A stretch of DNA of 64,000 bases from Nitrospirota bacterium (GCA_963790025.1 CAWBMP010000004.1:1280001-1344000); one strand, 5' to 3'. Numbered from the stretch's first letter, positions 21,001 through 30,000 are shown. A program made the numbers.

Positions 21001-24000
21001 TCTTTCATCGCAGTTCCCTTCGATTACGACATGTGTTTTAGCGTTTGTCGAGAGCATCTGTGCCAGGTTCTTCAGTATTGGCTTGGCCTCATCTTTGATA
21101 TCTGATTTATCGAAATCGAAATGAATGTCTTCGACCGTTGTCGTCAGTTCTCTTTCAGCCTGTCTTTCTACAGCCTGTTGGGCCGGTGCGGCAGGCGCCT
21201 CCATGGTCTGCGGGGCCTCGGCTTTTGGAGCAGGAGCAACCTCTTTCGGTTGTTCCGGGGCCTGGGTAACCTGCTTTTGAGCACAGCCTATAAGGGCTAT
21301 CATGCCGAGAATGAATAAAACTGCAACAAATAAACGTTTCATTATGTTCCTCCTTGAGTTAAAGATTGTTATAATTTAACAGATATCATGTATCTATGCA
21401 ATATTTGCCAAATCAGCAAAAATCAAATCAGCATAACGAATAACGCGATAAAGGGGGCGAGATGTCTGAATAAAGGGTAAGAGGCTTTTCATGCAGCAAG
21501 GTCCTGCTGTCGCCTTCCGGCAAAGCACAGGCTTCACCCTCAGGCATAGTTATACCATGAGCAACAGGCATATGTTCCCGTTCCGGGGTTTTTCTGATTA
21601 TATTGTCTGTGGGCAGGACAGCCCTTTTTTTCAAAAAAATGATCCTGACAGCGGACTGGGAACTCCCGCTGCATGGGTGGTGAGTAATTGTTGAGCCGAT
21701 CAGTTCCAGAAGAAACAGACGGGGCATTATTATATCAACTCCGGCTGGCTCCTCAAATGCTCTGTTCAGCTGCTCACCCATGAGGGTATACGAAAGAGTT
21801 GAGACAGTAAAGAGTAAAAAGTATGACAGAAAAACAGAATGAAACAGACGGCATTTCCCCGCATCCGCACACATGGGGAAATATTAACAAAAACCTATAG
21901 CCGGTAGCAAGCTGTAACTAAAAAGCGGCTAAGGGTCCCCCGCCTATAAAACTTTATTATATGGCCTTAAAAAACTTAAACTATCAAGAAATGCGTCTTG
22001 TATTGTAGTATGGCCGATATATTGGTTAATTTGTTATAATAAAGTTTTCGCGAATGGGTAGCTATGGCCATGCAAATAACTTTGGTTTAATAACAGTAAC
22101 TGTGCTGCATGCACTTTGATGAAAGACCACCTCTGCGATGGGTGGTGCATATTGCGTGCAAGAGTGAATCCAATTAAGTTATAAGGAGGATGTTTAGGAT
22201 GAAGGGCAATGTCCTTGTGGTTGATGATGAACAAATTGTACTCAAGAGCTGTGAGAGGGTACTTGTCCCCGAAGGTTTTGGGGTTAATATCGCTTTTTCG
22301 GCAGAAGAAGCCATCGGCTTGCTGGATAAAAACACATATGACCTTATTATTACCGATCTGAAGATGCCCGGGATGAACGGCCTGGAATTTATGGCAACAG
22401 TACGGGCCAAGGACCCGAATATTAATTTCGTAGTTATAACAGGCTACCCTTCACAGGAGAGCATAAAAGAGTCTTTGAATTTAAGAATAATCGATTACCT
22501 GCCTAAACCGTTTTCGCCGGCATTGCTTCTTGAGGTCGCCAACAAGGGAGTGGTATTCAAGCAAAAAGGCGCTGCCCCTGAAAGCAAGGATGATGTTTAC
22601 AATGCTGAAGCCGCCGGAAAGCTGGACGCAATAATACGCAACTATAAGAATAAACCCGGCAGCCTGATCCCGGTGCTCCAGGAAGCGCAGGAACTTATCG
22701 GCTTCCTCCCCCCTGTTGTGCAGCGGCACGTTGCGCGGGGCCTCGGAGTACCTGTAAGTGAAGTGCATGGCGTAGTTTCATTTTATTCTTTCTTTACAAT
22801 GAAGCCCAAGGGCAAGCACAATGTTAGAGTTTGTCTTGGCACAGCCTGCTATGTAAAAGGAGCTGAAGAAATTGTCAAGAAGTTCTCTGACGGTCTCCAC
22901 ATAGAAGTTGGCGGCATCACGGAAGACAAGAAATTCTCTCTTGAGACGGTGAGGTGCCTCGGCGCTTGTGGTCTTGCACCTGTCGTGGTAGTGGACAAGA
23001 ATGACACATACGGACATGTCAACCCTGTCAAGGTGCTGGATTTACTGAAAGACTATTAAAAAACGATAGAGGGTAGAGGACAGAGGTTTGAGGCCTCAAA
23101 CCTCCAATTTCTTTCCTCCAACATGAATTTTTAAGGAGGCTATATGTCCAGAATAACGGTTGATGATTTAAAGCGGATAAAGGAAGAGCATAAAGCTGCA
23201 TTTACCCTCCGGGAAGGTGGCAGCAGGGCAAGAATAACCGTTCATATGGGCACTTGCGGGATCGCCGCAGGTGCGCGGAAGGTGATGGAGGCGCTTCTTG
23301 ATGAGATCAGCAAGAGCAATGTCAATGACGTCGCGGTTACCACATCGGGATGTGCCGGATTCTGCAGCAGGGAGCCTATGGCAACGGTTGAGCTTCTCAA
23401 CGAGGCGCCGGTGAAATATGGTTTCCTCAATGAAGAAAAAATACGAAAAATATTTCAGGAGCATGTATTAAAAGGGCAACCGGTCGAAGAATATGCCCTT
23501 GTGTTGGGCAGTGAGACTGCATATTAAAAACAGGCGATAGGCAATAGGCAATTGGCTATAGGCGATAGGTGCTTTTTTCCTATAGCCTATAGCCCATAAC
23601 CTATAGCCTGATTTTATAGGAGGAATGATGGAAACGTATCGTGCAAGTGTCATGCTATGTGGAGGCACCGGCTGTATAGCCGGCGGCAGTTTAAAGCTGA
23701 AGAAAGCACTTGATGAAGAGATAAAGCGCAGGGAGCTTGATAATGAAATAAATGTTGTCCTGACCGGCTGCAACGGCTTCTGCGCAGAGGGGCCGGTGAT
23801 GACAGTGTATCCCGATGATATTTTCTATGAAAAGGTCACGGTAGCCGATGTGCCTTTGCTCATCGAAGAACACTTTATCAAAGGCAGGCCTGTGGAGCGG
23901 CTCATGTATAAGGAGCCCATAAAGAAACAAACCATACCGCTCATGAAGGAGATTCCCTTCTTCAGCCTTCAGGTACTCAGGGCCTTGCGGAACAAGGGGT

Positions 24001-27000: not shown

Positions 27001-30000
27001 GCAAGAGAGTTATTGCCATGACTTCGGCATCCTCGGAAAATACAAAGAGCGTAAATGCGCTCCTTGCCGCAGCGAACCTTGTGCTGCTTATGGGGGACGC
27101 CCCTGAAACACTCCAAATCCCGGCTGAGTTCTCCAACACACTCGGCATGTGGATGGTAGGTGTCAGGCCGCTTGCCGACGGCAAAAATGTCTATGACATG
27201 CTGTATACCCCCGGCACCATAAAAGCACTTTATATCATGGGAGAAAACCCTCTCGTCTCATTCCAGGATTTAAACGTAGTGGAGGAGACGATAAAAAACC
27301 TTGAATTTGTCGTGGTGCAGGACATCTTTATCAGCGATACCGCAAAACTGGCCGATGTGGTGCTGCCTGCCTGCAGCTGGGCTGAAAAAGAAGGGACCTT
27401 TATGAATGCCATGGGAGGCATACAGAAAATCCCTAAACTCATAGTGGAAGCCGGTGAGTCCGTTCCTGACTGGCAAATCTTCAGGAACCTTGCGCGGCAG
27501 ATGAACAAGGACCTCGGCATCAAGGACCTTACCGATATACGGGCCTCCGTTTCCGATATTGCAGTATCCGGCCCGAAGGATGAATTCCGCCCCTCATTCA
27601 ACCCGGTCTCTTTTGAATTAATAGAGACTGTGAGTGATGAGTATCCGGTATATCTCGTCACCTGGAACGTCCTTCAGCATTCCGGCGCGCTATCGGTCCT
27701 TTCCAAAAACCTTGACTCGGTCGTGGCAGATGCATTTCTCCAGGTAAATACCAAAGATGCGGAGAAATACCATATCAGCGATGATACCTTTGTAAAGGTC
27801 ACCTCGAAAAGAGGAGAGGTGTTTTTGAAGGCGGTGCTTTCCAATGAGGTGCCGGAGGGTACTGTCTTTGCTCCTGTTCACTTCGCCCACGCCAAGGTCA
27901 ATACCCTGACATACCCGGCGATAAACGGGGGCTTGCCGCTGGTTACGGTCAAGATTGAAGCGGCCTGAAATTAAAAGCAGGTATAGGGAAAGGTTAAGGT
28001 TAAGTAAATGAAAAAACTTTCCCCCTTAACCTTTGCCTTGACCTTTACCTGTCTTATTGAGCCTATGAAGGGATCCATAAAACGAAAAATATATAAGAAC
28101 AGTGGAAATTCTTTTGAGGAATTTGATGATTCCATTGCTACTGAAAAAAGACTAATAGTTTCAGTCAACGGCAAAGAGGTGCTCAGTTTTTACTGCACTC
28201 CCATTATGGTAAGGGAGCTGGTTGTCGGCATGTTTATGACCGAGGACATCATTAAGGGCGGGTGGTGCGCCGAGCGGATGGAGATACACTACGGCAAAGA
28301 GGTGCTTGTCGATATCCCTGCCGAGGGAGAGGCTTCAACAGACGGGGCTGTGATAACTTCAGGCTGCATCGGCGGCATTACTTTTCCAAAACGCCTGAAA
28401 CTGCAGAAAATCCATGATTCTTTCAATATACGCGCTGAAAGAATAAAAGCCCTGTTCAGGAAATTTCAGAACGCTTCGGAGCTTTACAAGCTAACCGGCT
28501 GTGTCCACAGTGCAGCCCTCAGCAATGGGAGCGAAATATTCTGCCTTGCCGAAGACATAGGAAGACATAATGCCGTAGATAAAGTTATCGGGTACGCAAT
28601 CCTGGAGCAAATTCCCTTCAAAGACACAATTATGCTTGCCAGCGGAAGGCTCTCCTCTGAGATTGTGTCCAAGTGCGCACGGTGGGGCATCCCTATTGTT
28701 GCGAGCCGGACCTCACCCACAAGCCTCGCCGTCGACATCGCGGAGGAAAGTGGCGTAACAGTCGTAGGTTTTGTCAGGGCCGACCGGTTGAATGTTTACA
28801 CCAATCCTCAAAGGATAAAATAGAAAAAAAGAGCATGGCATTTGCTCGTCCAAAGTCTGATAAAACACCTGCATTTGTTACGCATTTACCTGGATAACCT
28901 GCTCGATTCTTGCGAACAACCTCATGCAGTTTTCCGATAAGAACAGTGAAAATTGCGATGAGGGTTGTATCCCAAAACTTGCTGTTCTTAAGAAATCTGC
29001 CCTCTTTAAGGTTGCACCAAGAAGTTGTTACTCGCACCCGCTCCTCTCAGGCTCCACGTTACTTCTTAAAGTAGAGAGTTTCAGTATCGCTATACTGCTA
29101 TGCATGGGAACGGGGTCAGTGAGAACGGGGTCAGGTCTATAATGTTTACCTTTTTGCATGACCTCGAACAACCCGGCTTATATATGTAAAATGCAAATTG
29201 AGATGATTTGCGATTGCCCGCTGAGTATATCCAAATTCGTAGACAGCAGTAATTATTTTGCTGTCCCTCTGACTTTTATCCATTAATATGTTTTTGCTGA
29301 ATATGCTATCCAACCCGGGTCTGTTGACATACCGTTGCGTTTTGGATATTTCGGCAATATTCTTATGTTTATTGAGATGATGATTCAGGCTATCAACGAA
29401 TTCTTCTTTTCCGAGGACTACCTGGCCCTTAACAGCATTCCAAATACTTTCTTGTTCGATGCCTGATTTCACAAACTCACTGTATTTTCTTTCTGCCTCA
29501 CTCCTTTCCTCGCTGAATTGCCCTAGTATCCAGTCAGTGGTAAGACACGGATGAGGCGTTTTCTTTCCTGCGGTTTCCCCGCAGCTGGACCATTTCCAAT
29601 CTTCAGGCTGTTCAACTATGTGCGCACGTACCGGATTCAGCACAACATATCGGCACACTTCAAGAAGATGACTGTCTTTCTGGATCACAATAGCCTTATA
29701 TCTACCTTGCAACAGATGACCTGATCGGTTGCGCTTTTTGTTGTAAGCCTGGCTGTAGACACTGTTTAATTGCCTCATCCCTATGGACAGATTTCCATCC
29801 GGCGTTTCAATCATCAAATGATAATGGTTATCCATCAGACAGTAGGCATGGCATAGCCAATTGTACCGTCTATTGATATCGACAAGAATCCCAAGGAATG
29901 TTTCACGGTCAGCGTCATCCCTGAAAATTGACTTCTTCTCGTTTCCACGAGAAGTAACATGATATACAGCGCCAGGATATTGTATGCGCAACGGTCGAGC

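Follow-up and report, generated by a model that had tools for sequence, protein, structure and literature searches.

What does a two-component receiver domain do at the head of an iron-sulfur subunit of a redox enzyme, and which enzyme carries it? Regulation of the Bfu/HydABC-type bifurcating enzymes and of complex I input modules is generally seen as acting via gene expression. A receiver on the very subunit whose [2Fe-2S] domain moves in bifurcation would constitute a direct handle, by which the enzyme could be switched within seconds. The question is raised by an operon of four plus-strand ORFs (Table 1) in a 64,000-nucleotide stretch of a Nitrospirota genome, hereafter the window.

Table 1. 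Features of the operon and its 3′ neighbor, in window positions; residues follow the 289-aa numbering of the fusion protein
Feature	Position	Strand	Basis and remarks
REC-NuoE/HndA/BfuC fusion gene	22199..23059	+	286 aa; ORF, both Pfam domains found
Receiver (REC) domain	22211..22537	+	residues 8-116; Pfam PF00072 Response_reg
Flexible linker	22538..22624	+	residues 117-145; lowest conservation, low pLDDT
Thioredoxin-like [2Fe-2S] NuoE/BfuC domain	22625..23056	+	residues 146-289; Pfam PF01257
Terminator-like hairpin	23083..23104	+	putative; lies between genes 1 and 2, with a 9-bp stem and then a T-rich tail
HndB/HydD-like small thioredoxin-like [2Fe-2S] protein	23144..23527	+	127 aa
BfuB/HydB/HndC-type flavoprotein	23625..25508	+	627 aa; Pfam and full-length HydB match
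NuoG-like/Fdh-like large subunit	25515..27968	+	817 aa; Pfam, NCBIfam, alignments
FdhD sulfurtransferase gene	28008..28823	+	39 nt 3′ of the large-subunit gene; PF02634, TIGR00129

A receiver domain in one frame with a NuoE-type domain

The first gene encodes a protein in which, as the earlier note had described, a complete receiver is built into an HndA/HydC-type [2Fe-2S] subunit, both Pfam domains lying in one conserved frame. An alternative ATG at 22190 would give 289 aa, the numbering used here for residues unless stated; the start at 22199, which had also been chosen earlier, is the likelier one because an AGGAGG ribosome-binding site lies 9 nt upstream of it and the fusion homologues are 285-287 aa long. 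The receiver matches Response_reg at 89.9 bits (E 1.5e-25), where the cut-off is 30.2. Receivers follow the CheY pattern of an acidic pocket (D12, D13), a phospho-acceptor (D57), two switch residues (T87, Y106) and a lysine (K109), and the fusion protein carries this pattern throughout, with the pocket D12 and D13, the acceptor Asp56 (codon 22355-22357), the Thr and aromatic switch residues T84 and Y103, and K106 (9, 10, 53, 81, 100 and 103 in the 286-aa form). The C-terminal half matches 2Fe-2S_thioredx (E 2.6e-48, 164 bits against a cut-off of 24.8), presents the cluster cysteines C215, C220, C256 and C260, and aligns at residues 144-289 with solved HydC chains over their full length (E 7e-41). 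Between the two domains, mean column conservation among the homologues falls to 0.66, versus 0.82-0.88 within them. An AF2 model (pTM 0.49) gives a (beta-alpha)5 fold at residues 6-125 and pLDDT below 50 at linker residues 127-134; the receiver and the [2Fe-2S] domain make no fixed contact in it, and therefore the mechanism cannot be read from the structure.

Of 60 other genomes sampled in the class, 43 have both halves in a single open frame, a count of related and so not independent organisms, and each of the best 120 database clusters (67-95% identity) contains the two Pfam domains; the fusion is therefore neither an assembly artefact nor a chance event. It is typical of the class, in agreement with the earlier note, and two loci of Acidobacteriota have it as well. 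The six receiver residues and the four cluster cysteines are kept in all 121 close homologues, and in a wider set of 65 sequences (identity down to 28%) the cysteines are again invariant and D56 is kept in 62. Judged by these alignments, the fusion is old and under selection, including selection on the residues of phospho-chemistry. The literature search found no published account of a REC-NuoE/BfuC fusion.

Linkage of the operon to signalling genes

The operon is genomically linked to signalling genes. The window itself holds no kinase or cassette gene beside the operon, and to that extent the earlier statement that no kinase adjoins it is correct; in relatives, however, a histidine kinase is encoded directly upstream, and in this genome the signalling cassette lies 157 kb from the operon, on the other strand. 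Upstream DNA was surveyed at 32 loci with the fusion: the array HK-DRTGG-HATPase_c_2-DRTGG-PHP-HATPase_c(-REC) stands directly upstream on the same strand in six, a small HATPase_c (GHKL ATPase) gene is present upstream in 11, and a gene for a REC-GcvH-like protein in 22. Across the 60 class genomes the small HATPase_c gene occurs in 32, all of them among the 43 with the fusion, and in none of the 17 without it; in 25 of these 32 it lies at most 10 kb upstream of the fusion on the same contig, and no match was found in 11 of the 43. The Acidobacteriota loci encode, in a row, a Cache-HK, a sigma54 response regulator, the REC-NuoE fusion, BfuB and a small BfuA. Within this genome, the fused receiver is closest to that of a solo protein encoded next to the cassette (41% identity) and to that of the REC-GcvH-like protein (38%).

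These data bear on a rival view, in which the receiver would never be phosphorylated: as a pseudo-receiver, or as a domain with a structural or docking role, it would provide a protein-protein interface only. The absence of a kinase from the window would agree with this, as would the loss of the Asp in three distant REC-NuoE fusions among the 65 sequences of the wider set (P0129, P0131, P0268), and the degenerate receivers in some of these (P0129, P0268) imply that phosphorylation is not universal. However, the complete retention of the six phospho-chemistry residues in the close homologues and the tight linkage of kinase, phosphoesterase and other receiver genes in relatives make a purely structural role improbable.

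The redox subunits encoded by the operon

The second gene encodes a protein with a partial PF01257 match (22.3 bits, below the cut-off of 24.8); it is conserved 3′ of the fusion gene in related loci, and tblastn did not find it in one of them, L015. The third encodes a B subunit in which Pfam finds a [2Fe-2S] domain at the N terminus, the FMN/NADH site, the NuoF [4Fe-4S] domain and, in a C-terminal domain, two [4Fe-4S] motifs; the first two of these and the C-terminal domain with its two motifs are the features by which Bfu (HydABC-type) B subunits are recognized. It matches solved bifurcating HydB end to end (residues 5-595, E 4e-254), versus about 1e-120 for NuoF and FdsB, which bears out the HydABC/Hnd (Bfu)-type core that had been claimed. 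A domain search and the active-site alignment found no catalytic third site for bifurcation in the operon.

The large subunit begins with [2Fe-2S] and [4Fe-4S] domains, which are followed by a molybdopterin-fold domain without catalytic residues. Where formate dehydrogenases have Sec/Cys-His it has Gly348-Tyr349 (Gly348 codon 26556-26558), the pair to which Cys386-His387 of R. capsulatus FdsA aligns. Comparison of the window sequence with 26 orthologues gave, over the 27 sequences, Gly in 26 and Ser in one at the Sec/Cys site, Tyr in 26 and Phe in one at the His site, and deletion of the Arg-bearing RGQNNVQG loop in every case, whereas the two true Sec-containing formate dehydrogenase alpha genes found elsewhere in this genome both keep U-H and the loop. 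Against the NCBIfam models it scores 444.2 bits for Fdh-alpha (TIGR01591), under the cut-off of 666.25, and 461.5 bits for NuoG (TIGR01973), just under the cut-off of 470.05 and over model positions 1-606 of 606, NuoG being its best-scoring family. BLAST places it at roughly equal similarity to the genome's Sec-formate dehydrogenase (512 bits) and to its NuoG-like paralogue (352 + 117 bits). By its sequence features, the large subunit is complex-I-like (NuoG-like), with a catalytically dead molybdopterin-fold domain, and not a working formate dehydrogenase. The neighbor genes are as the earlier note had described them, HndB-like, HydB-type and large subunit, except that its formate dehydrogenase alpha subunit lacks the catalytic residues.

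That note had read the operon as an NAD(P)-linked formate dehydrogenase module (Fds/Hnd type) whose formate/NAD(P)H electron flow would be controlled by phosphorylating the HndA-like subunit. Among solved proteins, NAD-dependent formate dehydrogenase alpha subunits indeed match the large subunit best (E 1.8e-117), FdhD follows directly downstream (194.4 bits to TIGR00129, above the cut-off of 140.9), and a MoaA gene lies nearby upstream; with FdhD at such a short distance and MoaA close by, use of a pterin cofactor could be meant after all. The gene order E-(D)-F-alpha-FdhD also resembles that of fdsGBA with the FdhD-like fdsC. Nevertheless, outside the closest relatives (L001-3, L006, L007, L019) FdhD does not adjoin the operon, and it is needed by the two Sec-formate dehydrogenase alpha genes, which counts against it as the sign of a formate dehydrogenase operon, and it is probably not part of the enzyme. 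The formate dehydrogenase module was rejected, and we regard it as quite unlikely, because neither the window sequence nor any of the 26 orthologues retains the Sec/Cys ligand, the His or the Arg loop, and the Fdh-alpha score falls far below its cut-off; dead Fdh-like domains are, moreover, already known in Bfu A subunits such as NfnA (PMC11829005). Fdh-like large subunits without the Sec/Cys, His and Arg are thus an annotation trap and should not count as formate dehydrogenases in Nitrospirota metabolic reconstructions.

The operon encodes a Bfu-type B subunit of full length and a large subunit, and no other NuoE-type protein; the fusion protein is therefore the structural C subunit. That it should chiefly serve in signalling as a redox sensor, its [2Fe-2S] domain being the sensor or output, and be no enzyme subunit is very improbable, for although NuoE-like domains exist in signalling architectures (with an OmpR-type Trans_reg_C in P0225, as a HATPase_c-NuoE fusion in P0160), the B and A subunits of this operon need a C-type subunit and have only this one, its [2Fe-2S] domain spans the whole of the solved HydC chains, and related loci that reach that far keep the same gene order.

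A predicted phospho-switch compared with known systems

Based on these findings, we propose that the operon encodes a soluble, phospho-switchable BfuABC-type (HydABC/Hnd/NuoEFG-related) input module for NADH and probably ferredoxin, with a dead NuoG-like large subunit, a reading that we consider reasonably probable. The flavin/iron-sulfur module would oxidize NADH and probably exchange electrons with ferredoxin. In NfnABC (PMC11829005), the N-terminal domain of BfuC is anchored in a cleft that the A-subunit Fdh-like domain forms with the B-subunit Rossmann fold, and the C-terminal [2Fe-2S] domain of BfuC moves during bifurcation. To such an N-terminal anchor a canonical, phosphorylatable receiver would here be tied via a flexible linker of about 20-30 residues. 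A histidine kinase, in relatives the one encoded directly upstream in the company of the GHKL ATPase, PHP phosphoesterase, DRTGG proteins and single-domain receivers, could phosphorylate Asp56, and the phosphorylation state of this residue would probably switch the module at the protein level, by altering either the movement or assembly of the BC core or the docking to a partner. The sequences themselves establish the domains, their conservation, the missing formate dehydrogenase residues and the linkage to signalling genes; from these we infer phosphotransfer, an effect of it on activity, and a partner with the third redox site. Asp56 offers experimenters a single residue to test, and the scheme may also account for the presence, so far puzzling, of "hisK", PHP and DRTGG genes at many HydABC-type operons.

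Complex I is a candidate partner. About 190 kb from the fusion operon the genome has an 11-subunit nuo operon that lacks E, F and G, with the large subunit outside it. Where 6 kb or more of upstream DNA is available, at 22 loci, nuo genes lie divergently upstream of the fusion operon in seven. More tentatively, and with a probability that we put rather low, the REC-BfuC operon may encode a detachable, phospho-switched N-module for NADH and ferredoxin that serves this Nuo complex in trans. The sensor would be the membrane histidine kinase of relatives, with its periplasmic CxxCH (c-type haem) domain, acting with the GHKL ATPase, PHP phosphoesterase and DRTGG proteins to set the phosphorylation of three sister receivers, namely those on BfuC, of the solo protein and of the REC-GcvH-like protein, and the phosphorylation state would decide docking of the module and bifurcation versus confurcation. 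If true, this would place complex I input and flavin-based electron bifurcation under post-translational two-component control.

The proposed input module resembles several known systems in part. Nuo-Bfu, a complex I with a BfuABC-type input module, was predicted by Schut et al. (2022; PMC9304861) and reported for Nitrospirae and Planctomycetes (clade 39 of that study); it shares with our operon the extra clusters of a Bfu-type B subunit, a C subunit of NuoE type, a NuoG-like A subunit without a catalytic site of its own, and the nuo genes that adjoin in relatives. However, the module described here forms its own operon outside nuo, with an HndB-like gene and a receiver on the C subunit, and the words "receiver" and "response regulator" are absent from the available text of PMC9304861. 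The HydABC/Hnd hydrogenases (7q4v, 7t2r, 8a6t, 7p5h) have the same BC core, to which the B and C matches given above refer, and an HndB/HydD-like gene, and their operons contain a small "hisK"-type HATPase gene whose product is outside the holoenzyme (PMC9304861); the A subunit here lacks their hydrogenase domain, and the alignments show no N-terminal receiver in the solved HydC chains.

FdsGBA (R. capsulatus 6tg9; C. necator 6vw7) likewise combines NuoE-, NuoF- and NuoG-like subunits with a molybdopterin-fold domain, and no other solved enzyme matches the large subunit better, but its Cys386 and His387 are replaced here by Gly and Tyr, the Arg loop is deleted, and FdsB is a far more distant match to the B subunit than HydB. 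NfnABC and StnABC (9n5u, 9bov, 8oh5) have an A subunit whose Fdh-like domain is without a molybdenum site, as here (PMC11829005). Their A subunits add an NADPH-binding GltD-like part as third substrate site, which our operon does not encode. The nearest precedent for the fusion is, by analogy, mycobacterial: complex I there has as a bona fide subunit the free receiver protein MSMEG_2064/Rv3143, which is bound to NuoB near the membrane and which the authors call unique to mycobacteria (PMC10068793). As there, the two-component receiver described here is predicted to be physically part of an NADH dehydrogenase complex; it differs in being joined covalently to NuoE/BfuC, at the NADH end, and in occurring in other phyla. 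This suggests that the theme of a receiver in an NADH dehydrogenase is wider than the mycobacteria and has arisen independently.

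The receiver-[2Fe-2S] fusion and its distribution

The four co-oriented genes, opening with a fusion of a two-component receiver to the [2Fe-2S] subunit, that the earlier note had described are borne out by the open reading frames and the Pfam matches. In the fusion, the receiver occupies residues 8-116 (Pfam, 89.9 bits against a cut-off of 30.2) and the thioredoxin-like [2Fe-2S] domain residues 146-289 (Pfam, E 2.6e-48), as numbered on the 289-aa form beginning at 22190; however, translation more likely starts at 22199, because AGGAGG lies 9 nt 5′ of that position and the homologues are 285-287 aa long. 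The receiver carries D12, D13, D56, T84, Y103 and K106, and solved HydC chains match the [2Fe-2S] half (E 7e-41). An AlphaFold2 model based on 65 sequences has two well-folded domains and a disordered linker (mean pLDDT 82.5, pTM 0.49), with linker residues 127-134 below a pLDDT of 50 and no fixed orientation between the domains.

Among 5.8 billion proteins searched, both Pfam domains were present in 120/120 best clusters (67-95% identity), and upon aligning these with the window protein the six receiver residues and the four cluster cysteines were kept in 121/121 sequences, the linker being the least conserved segment. In a 50%-identity library, 30 proteins were taken by length or match pattern from the 150 best hits and scanned; 17 of them had both domains, the most distant at about 30% identity. 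In a set of 65 sequences that takes in these distant forms, 62 retain D56 and the other three have Tyr, Glu or Ser at this site. Within Thermodesulfovibrionia (61 genomes sampled), 43 of the 60 other genomes encode both halves in one uninterrupted frame, so the fusion is real and typical of the class; eight genomes have only unfused NuoE-type genes, and the 9 genomes of one genus gave no match of any kind. Two Acidobacteriota loci also carry it. Database entries call it 'NAD(P)H-dependent oxidoreductase subunit E', and some mention the receiver. A search of the literature outside subscription journals and supplements returned no description of a receiver fused to NuoE/HndA/HydC, and neither 'receiver' nor 'response regulator' occurs in the Bfu (electron-bifurcating HydABC-type) family paper (PMC9304861).

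Among other database proteins, P0225 (301 aa) joins NuoE to an OmpR-type DNA-binding domain and P0126 (578 aa) consists of two tandem REC-NuoE units. The window's own genome, G000, holds a broken second copy of the receiver-plus-linker portion on contig 5 (C5:562843-563341; minus strand, about 3855-4342, of locus L085), 74% identical over residues 2-55 and 57% over residues 57-163, with a frame break and internal stops; Cache-domain and PAS-HATPase genes adjoin it.

Features of the operon, its downstream DNA and the signalling cassette (window positions unless a locus or contig is named)
Feature	Position	Strand	Remark
Fusion gene	22190/22199-23059	+	ORF
Hairpin	23083-23104		9-bp stem, T-rich tail; 24 nt past fusion-gene stop, 40 nt ahead of HndB-like gene
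HndB-like gene (second)	23144-23527	+	ORF
B-subunit gene (third)	23625-25508	+	ORF
Large-subunit gene (fourth)	25515-27968	+	ORF
FdhD gene	28008-28823	+	after large-subunit gene
IS200-type Y1 transposase	29146-30075	-	just downstream of FdhD
DUF3391 + HD_5 (HD-GYP-like) protein	30182-31165	-	
IS110 transposase	31481-32680	+	
SRAP protein	within 29146-33500		downstream of FdhD
Cassette histidine kinase	L008:5375-6988; G000 C4:1462265-1463407		orthologues in L009, L011, L014, L023, L033, L034
Small 'hisK'-like HATPase_c	L083:3736-4269 (G000 C4:1459735-1460268)		178 aa

The hairpin following the fusion gene could be an attenuator or an mRNA-stability element within the operon. A sigma-54 GG-N10-GC pattern, sought by eye upstream of the operon, had unsuitable spacing, and counts of sigma-70 promoters and terminators were no higher than in shuffled sequence.

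The large subunit and the type of enzyme

The earlier note regarded the operon as a formate dehydrogenase module, and among solved structures the large subunit is indeed best matched by NAD-dependent formate dehydrogenases (E 1.8e-117). In the same alignment, however, Gly-Tyr of the large subunit stands where R. capsulatus FdsA has Cys-His. The window protein was aligned with 26 orthologues taken from related loci, two Sec-FDH alpha subunits and the canonical NuoG of G000, excluding loci with a fragmented, truncated or absent gene (L001, L004, L012, L027, L005, L009, L010, L022, L032, L036). The Sec/Cys column then holds Gly in 26/27 large subunits and Ser in one, the next column Tyr in 26/27 and Phe in one, and a deletion in 27/27 removes the 'RGQNNVQG' loop, which bears the catalytic Arg, while both Sec-FDH alpha subunits of G000 keep U-H and the loop. 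Among curated families NuoG scores best (461.5 bits against a cut-off of 470.05, with the whole model covered), and the Fdh-alpha model reaches 444 bits against a cut-off of 666. With Sec/Cys, His and the Arg loop gone throughout, the formate dehydrogenase assignment is given up and the large subunit, judged by its sequence, is not a formate dehydrogenase. The main points against this conclusion are the FdhD gene directly downstream and MoaA upstream, but FdhD trails the operon in the closest relatives only, and the real formate dehydrogenases of G000 need FdhD. Dead Fdh-like domains are known from Bfu A subunits, e.g., NfnA (PMC11829005), and in mycobacterial NuoG the former cofactor site is occupied by a GTP-like nucleotide (PMC10068793).

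Two NuoG-fused Sec-FDH alpha genes with in-frame TGA, at C4:299735-303744 and C4:691766-694408 of G000 (loci L081 and L082; motifs 'CARLUHAP' and 'CARVUHAP'), are its real candidates for cytoplasmic NAD-linked formate dehydrogenase; a NuoE/NuoF-fused flavoprotein gene precedes the first.

Residues 5-595 of the B subunit align full-length with solved bifurcating HydB chains (E 4e-254), whereas its matches to NuoF and FdsB are weaker (about 1e-120), and the subunit has an N-terminal [2Fe-2S] domain and a C-terminal two-[4Fe-4S] domain. By this match and these cluster domains the core is assigned to the Bfu type, with an A subunit predicted to supply clusters and no catalytic site. Bfu cases with a non-catalytic A subunit are described as needing an extra module, such as Fdh-Bfu of G. 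acidurici and Nuo-Bfu, the latter being reported for Nitrospirae (Schut et al., 2022, PMC9304861). In G000, one nuo operon, on contig 5, encodes 14 subunits, and one at C4:1.10-1.11 Mb encodes 11 and lacks E, F and G. Upstream DNA of 6 kb or more is available for 22 related loci, and seven of these have a divergent nuoA-D(H) there; in three of the seven, nuoH comes straight after nuoD, leaving no space for E, F and G. That the operon module feeds a Nuo complex is thus supported, not proven. In published Thermodesulfovibrio genomes Nuo is reported without EFG (PMC5165239), which would agree with the genus that gave no match, if our guess at its identity is right.

A second, unfused NuoEFG-like set of G000 lies at C4:532-536 kb (L084, C4:531290-536345), adjoining an H+-pyrophosphatase gene. 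Its NuoG-like gene consists of two overlapping frames, either a frameshift or a split gene, and is followed by a receiver-GcvH-like gene, the same gene that directly precedes the REC-NuoE gene in most relatives.

Signalling genes upstream of the fusion in relatives

The statement that no kinase lies next to the operon holds for the window, in which no signalling gene lies beside it and OmpA- and TPR-type genes of the opposite strand flank it upstream, but it does not extend to the relatives. In L008, L009, L011, L012, L014 and L033, a same-strand series stands directly 5′ of the fusion gene in the order HAMP-HisKA-HATPase_c kinase, DRTGG, HATPase_c_2, DRTGG, PHP, a 178-190-aa HATPase_c protein and a solo receiver; it is partial in L013 and L020, and precedes an unfused NuoE in L034. 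The receiver-GcvH-like gene is just upstream in 22/32 loci; for the C-terminal half of its product, an ESM Atlas look-up gave weak GcvH leads only (0.76). All these genes exist in G000 at C4:1459735-1463964, 157 kb from the operon, and the mobile elements at window 29146-33500 may explain the separation. The receivers of G000 nearest the fused one are the cassette solo receiver (41% identical) and the receiver-GcvH-like protein (38%). A sequence with weak likeness to histidine kinases (25% identity to the cassette kinase) occurs some 25 kb past the operon, at about 47386-48183 of the window.

The small HATPase_c was found in 32 of the 60 class-sample genomes, all among the 43 with the fusion, and in 0/17 of those without it, counts that overstate independence because the genomes are related; in 25/32 it lies at most 10 kb upstream of the fusion on the same contig, by coordinates. 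A further link to signalling is P0160 (358 aa), in which HATPase_c is fused to NuoE, and in the Acidobacteriota loci the genes immediately before the fusion gene encode a Cache kinase and a sigma54 response regulator.

A periplasmic domain of about 170 aa with CxxCH at position 116 is present in 7/8 kinase orthologues (in L033 the motif is at 129, the frame beginning 13 codons earlier), and a second, C-x4-CH-like motif in 7/8 relatives' kinases, which suggests that the cassette kinase of relatives is a c-type haem sensor. The G000 copy is without this domain and has a short loop between two membrane helices. The small HATPase_c is modelled as one compact GHKL domain (AlphaFold2, pLDDT 84, pTM 0.81), and over its whole length is closer to MutL/PMS2 ATPase domains (~180 Foldseek columns) than to kinase CA domains (~100). 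Its invariant 'SHIDRKPLG' motif was considered as the H-box of a hidden histidine kinase and dropped as unsupported, since the model places it in a short helix and loop inside the GHKL domain, not in a helical hairpin.

Possible control by the receiver

In NfnABC, subunit A, through its Fdh-like domain, and subunit B, through its Rossmann fold, hold the N-terminal domain of BfuC wedged between them, and during bifurcation the [2Fe-2S] domain at the BfuC C-terminus moves back and forth between FMN and clusters B3/B4 (PMC11829005). We propose that the receiver, tethered to the BfuC N-terminal anchor, would lie beside the NAD(H) site as well as the parts that move, and that phosphorylation could change it, through dimerisation or docking, and so gate nucleotide access or domain movement. 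Such changes might also control assembly with a partner. It is the fusion, with the signalling genes around it, that makes the operon noteworthy, and not formate metabolism. For such a receiver there is a precedent in mycobacterial complex I, wherein a receiver is a stable subunit with its Asp buried when bound (PMC10068793).
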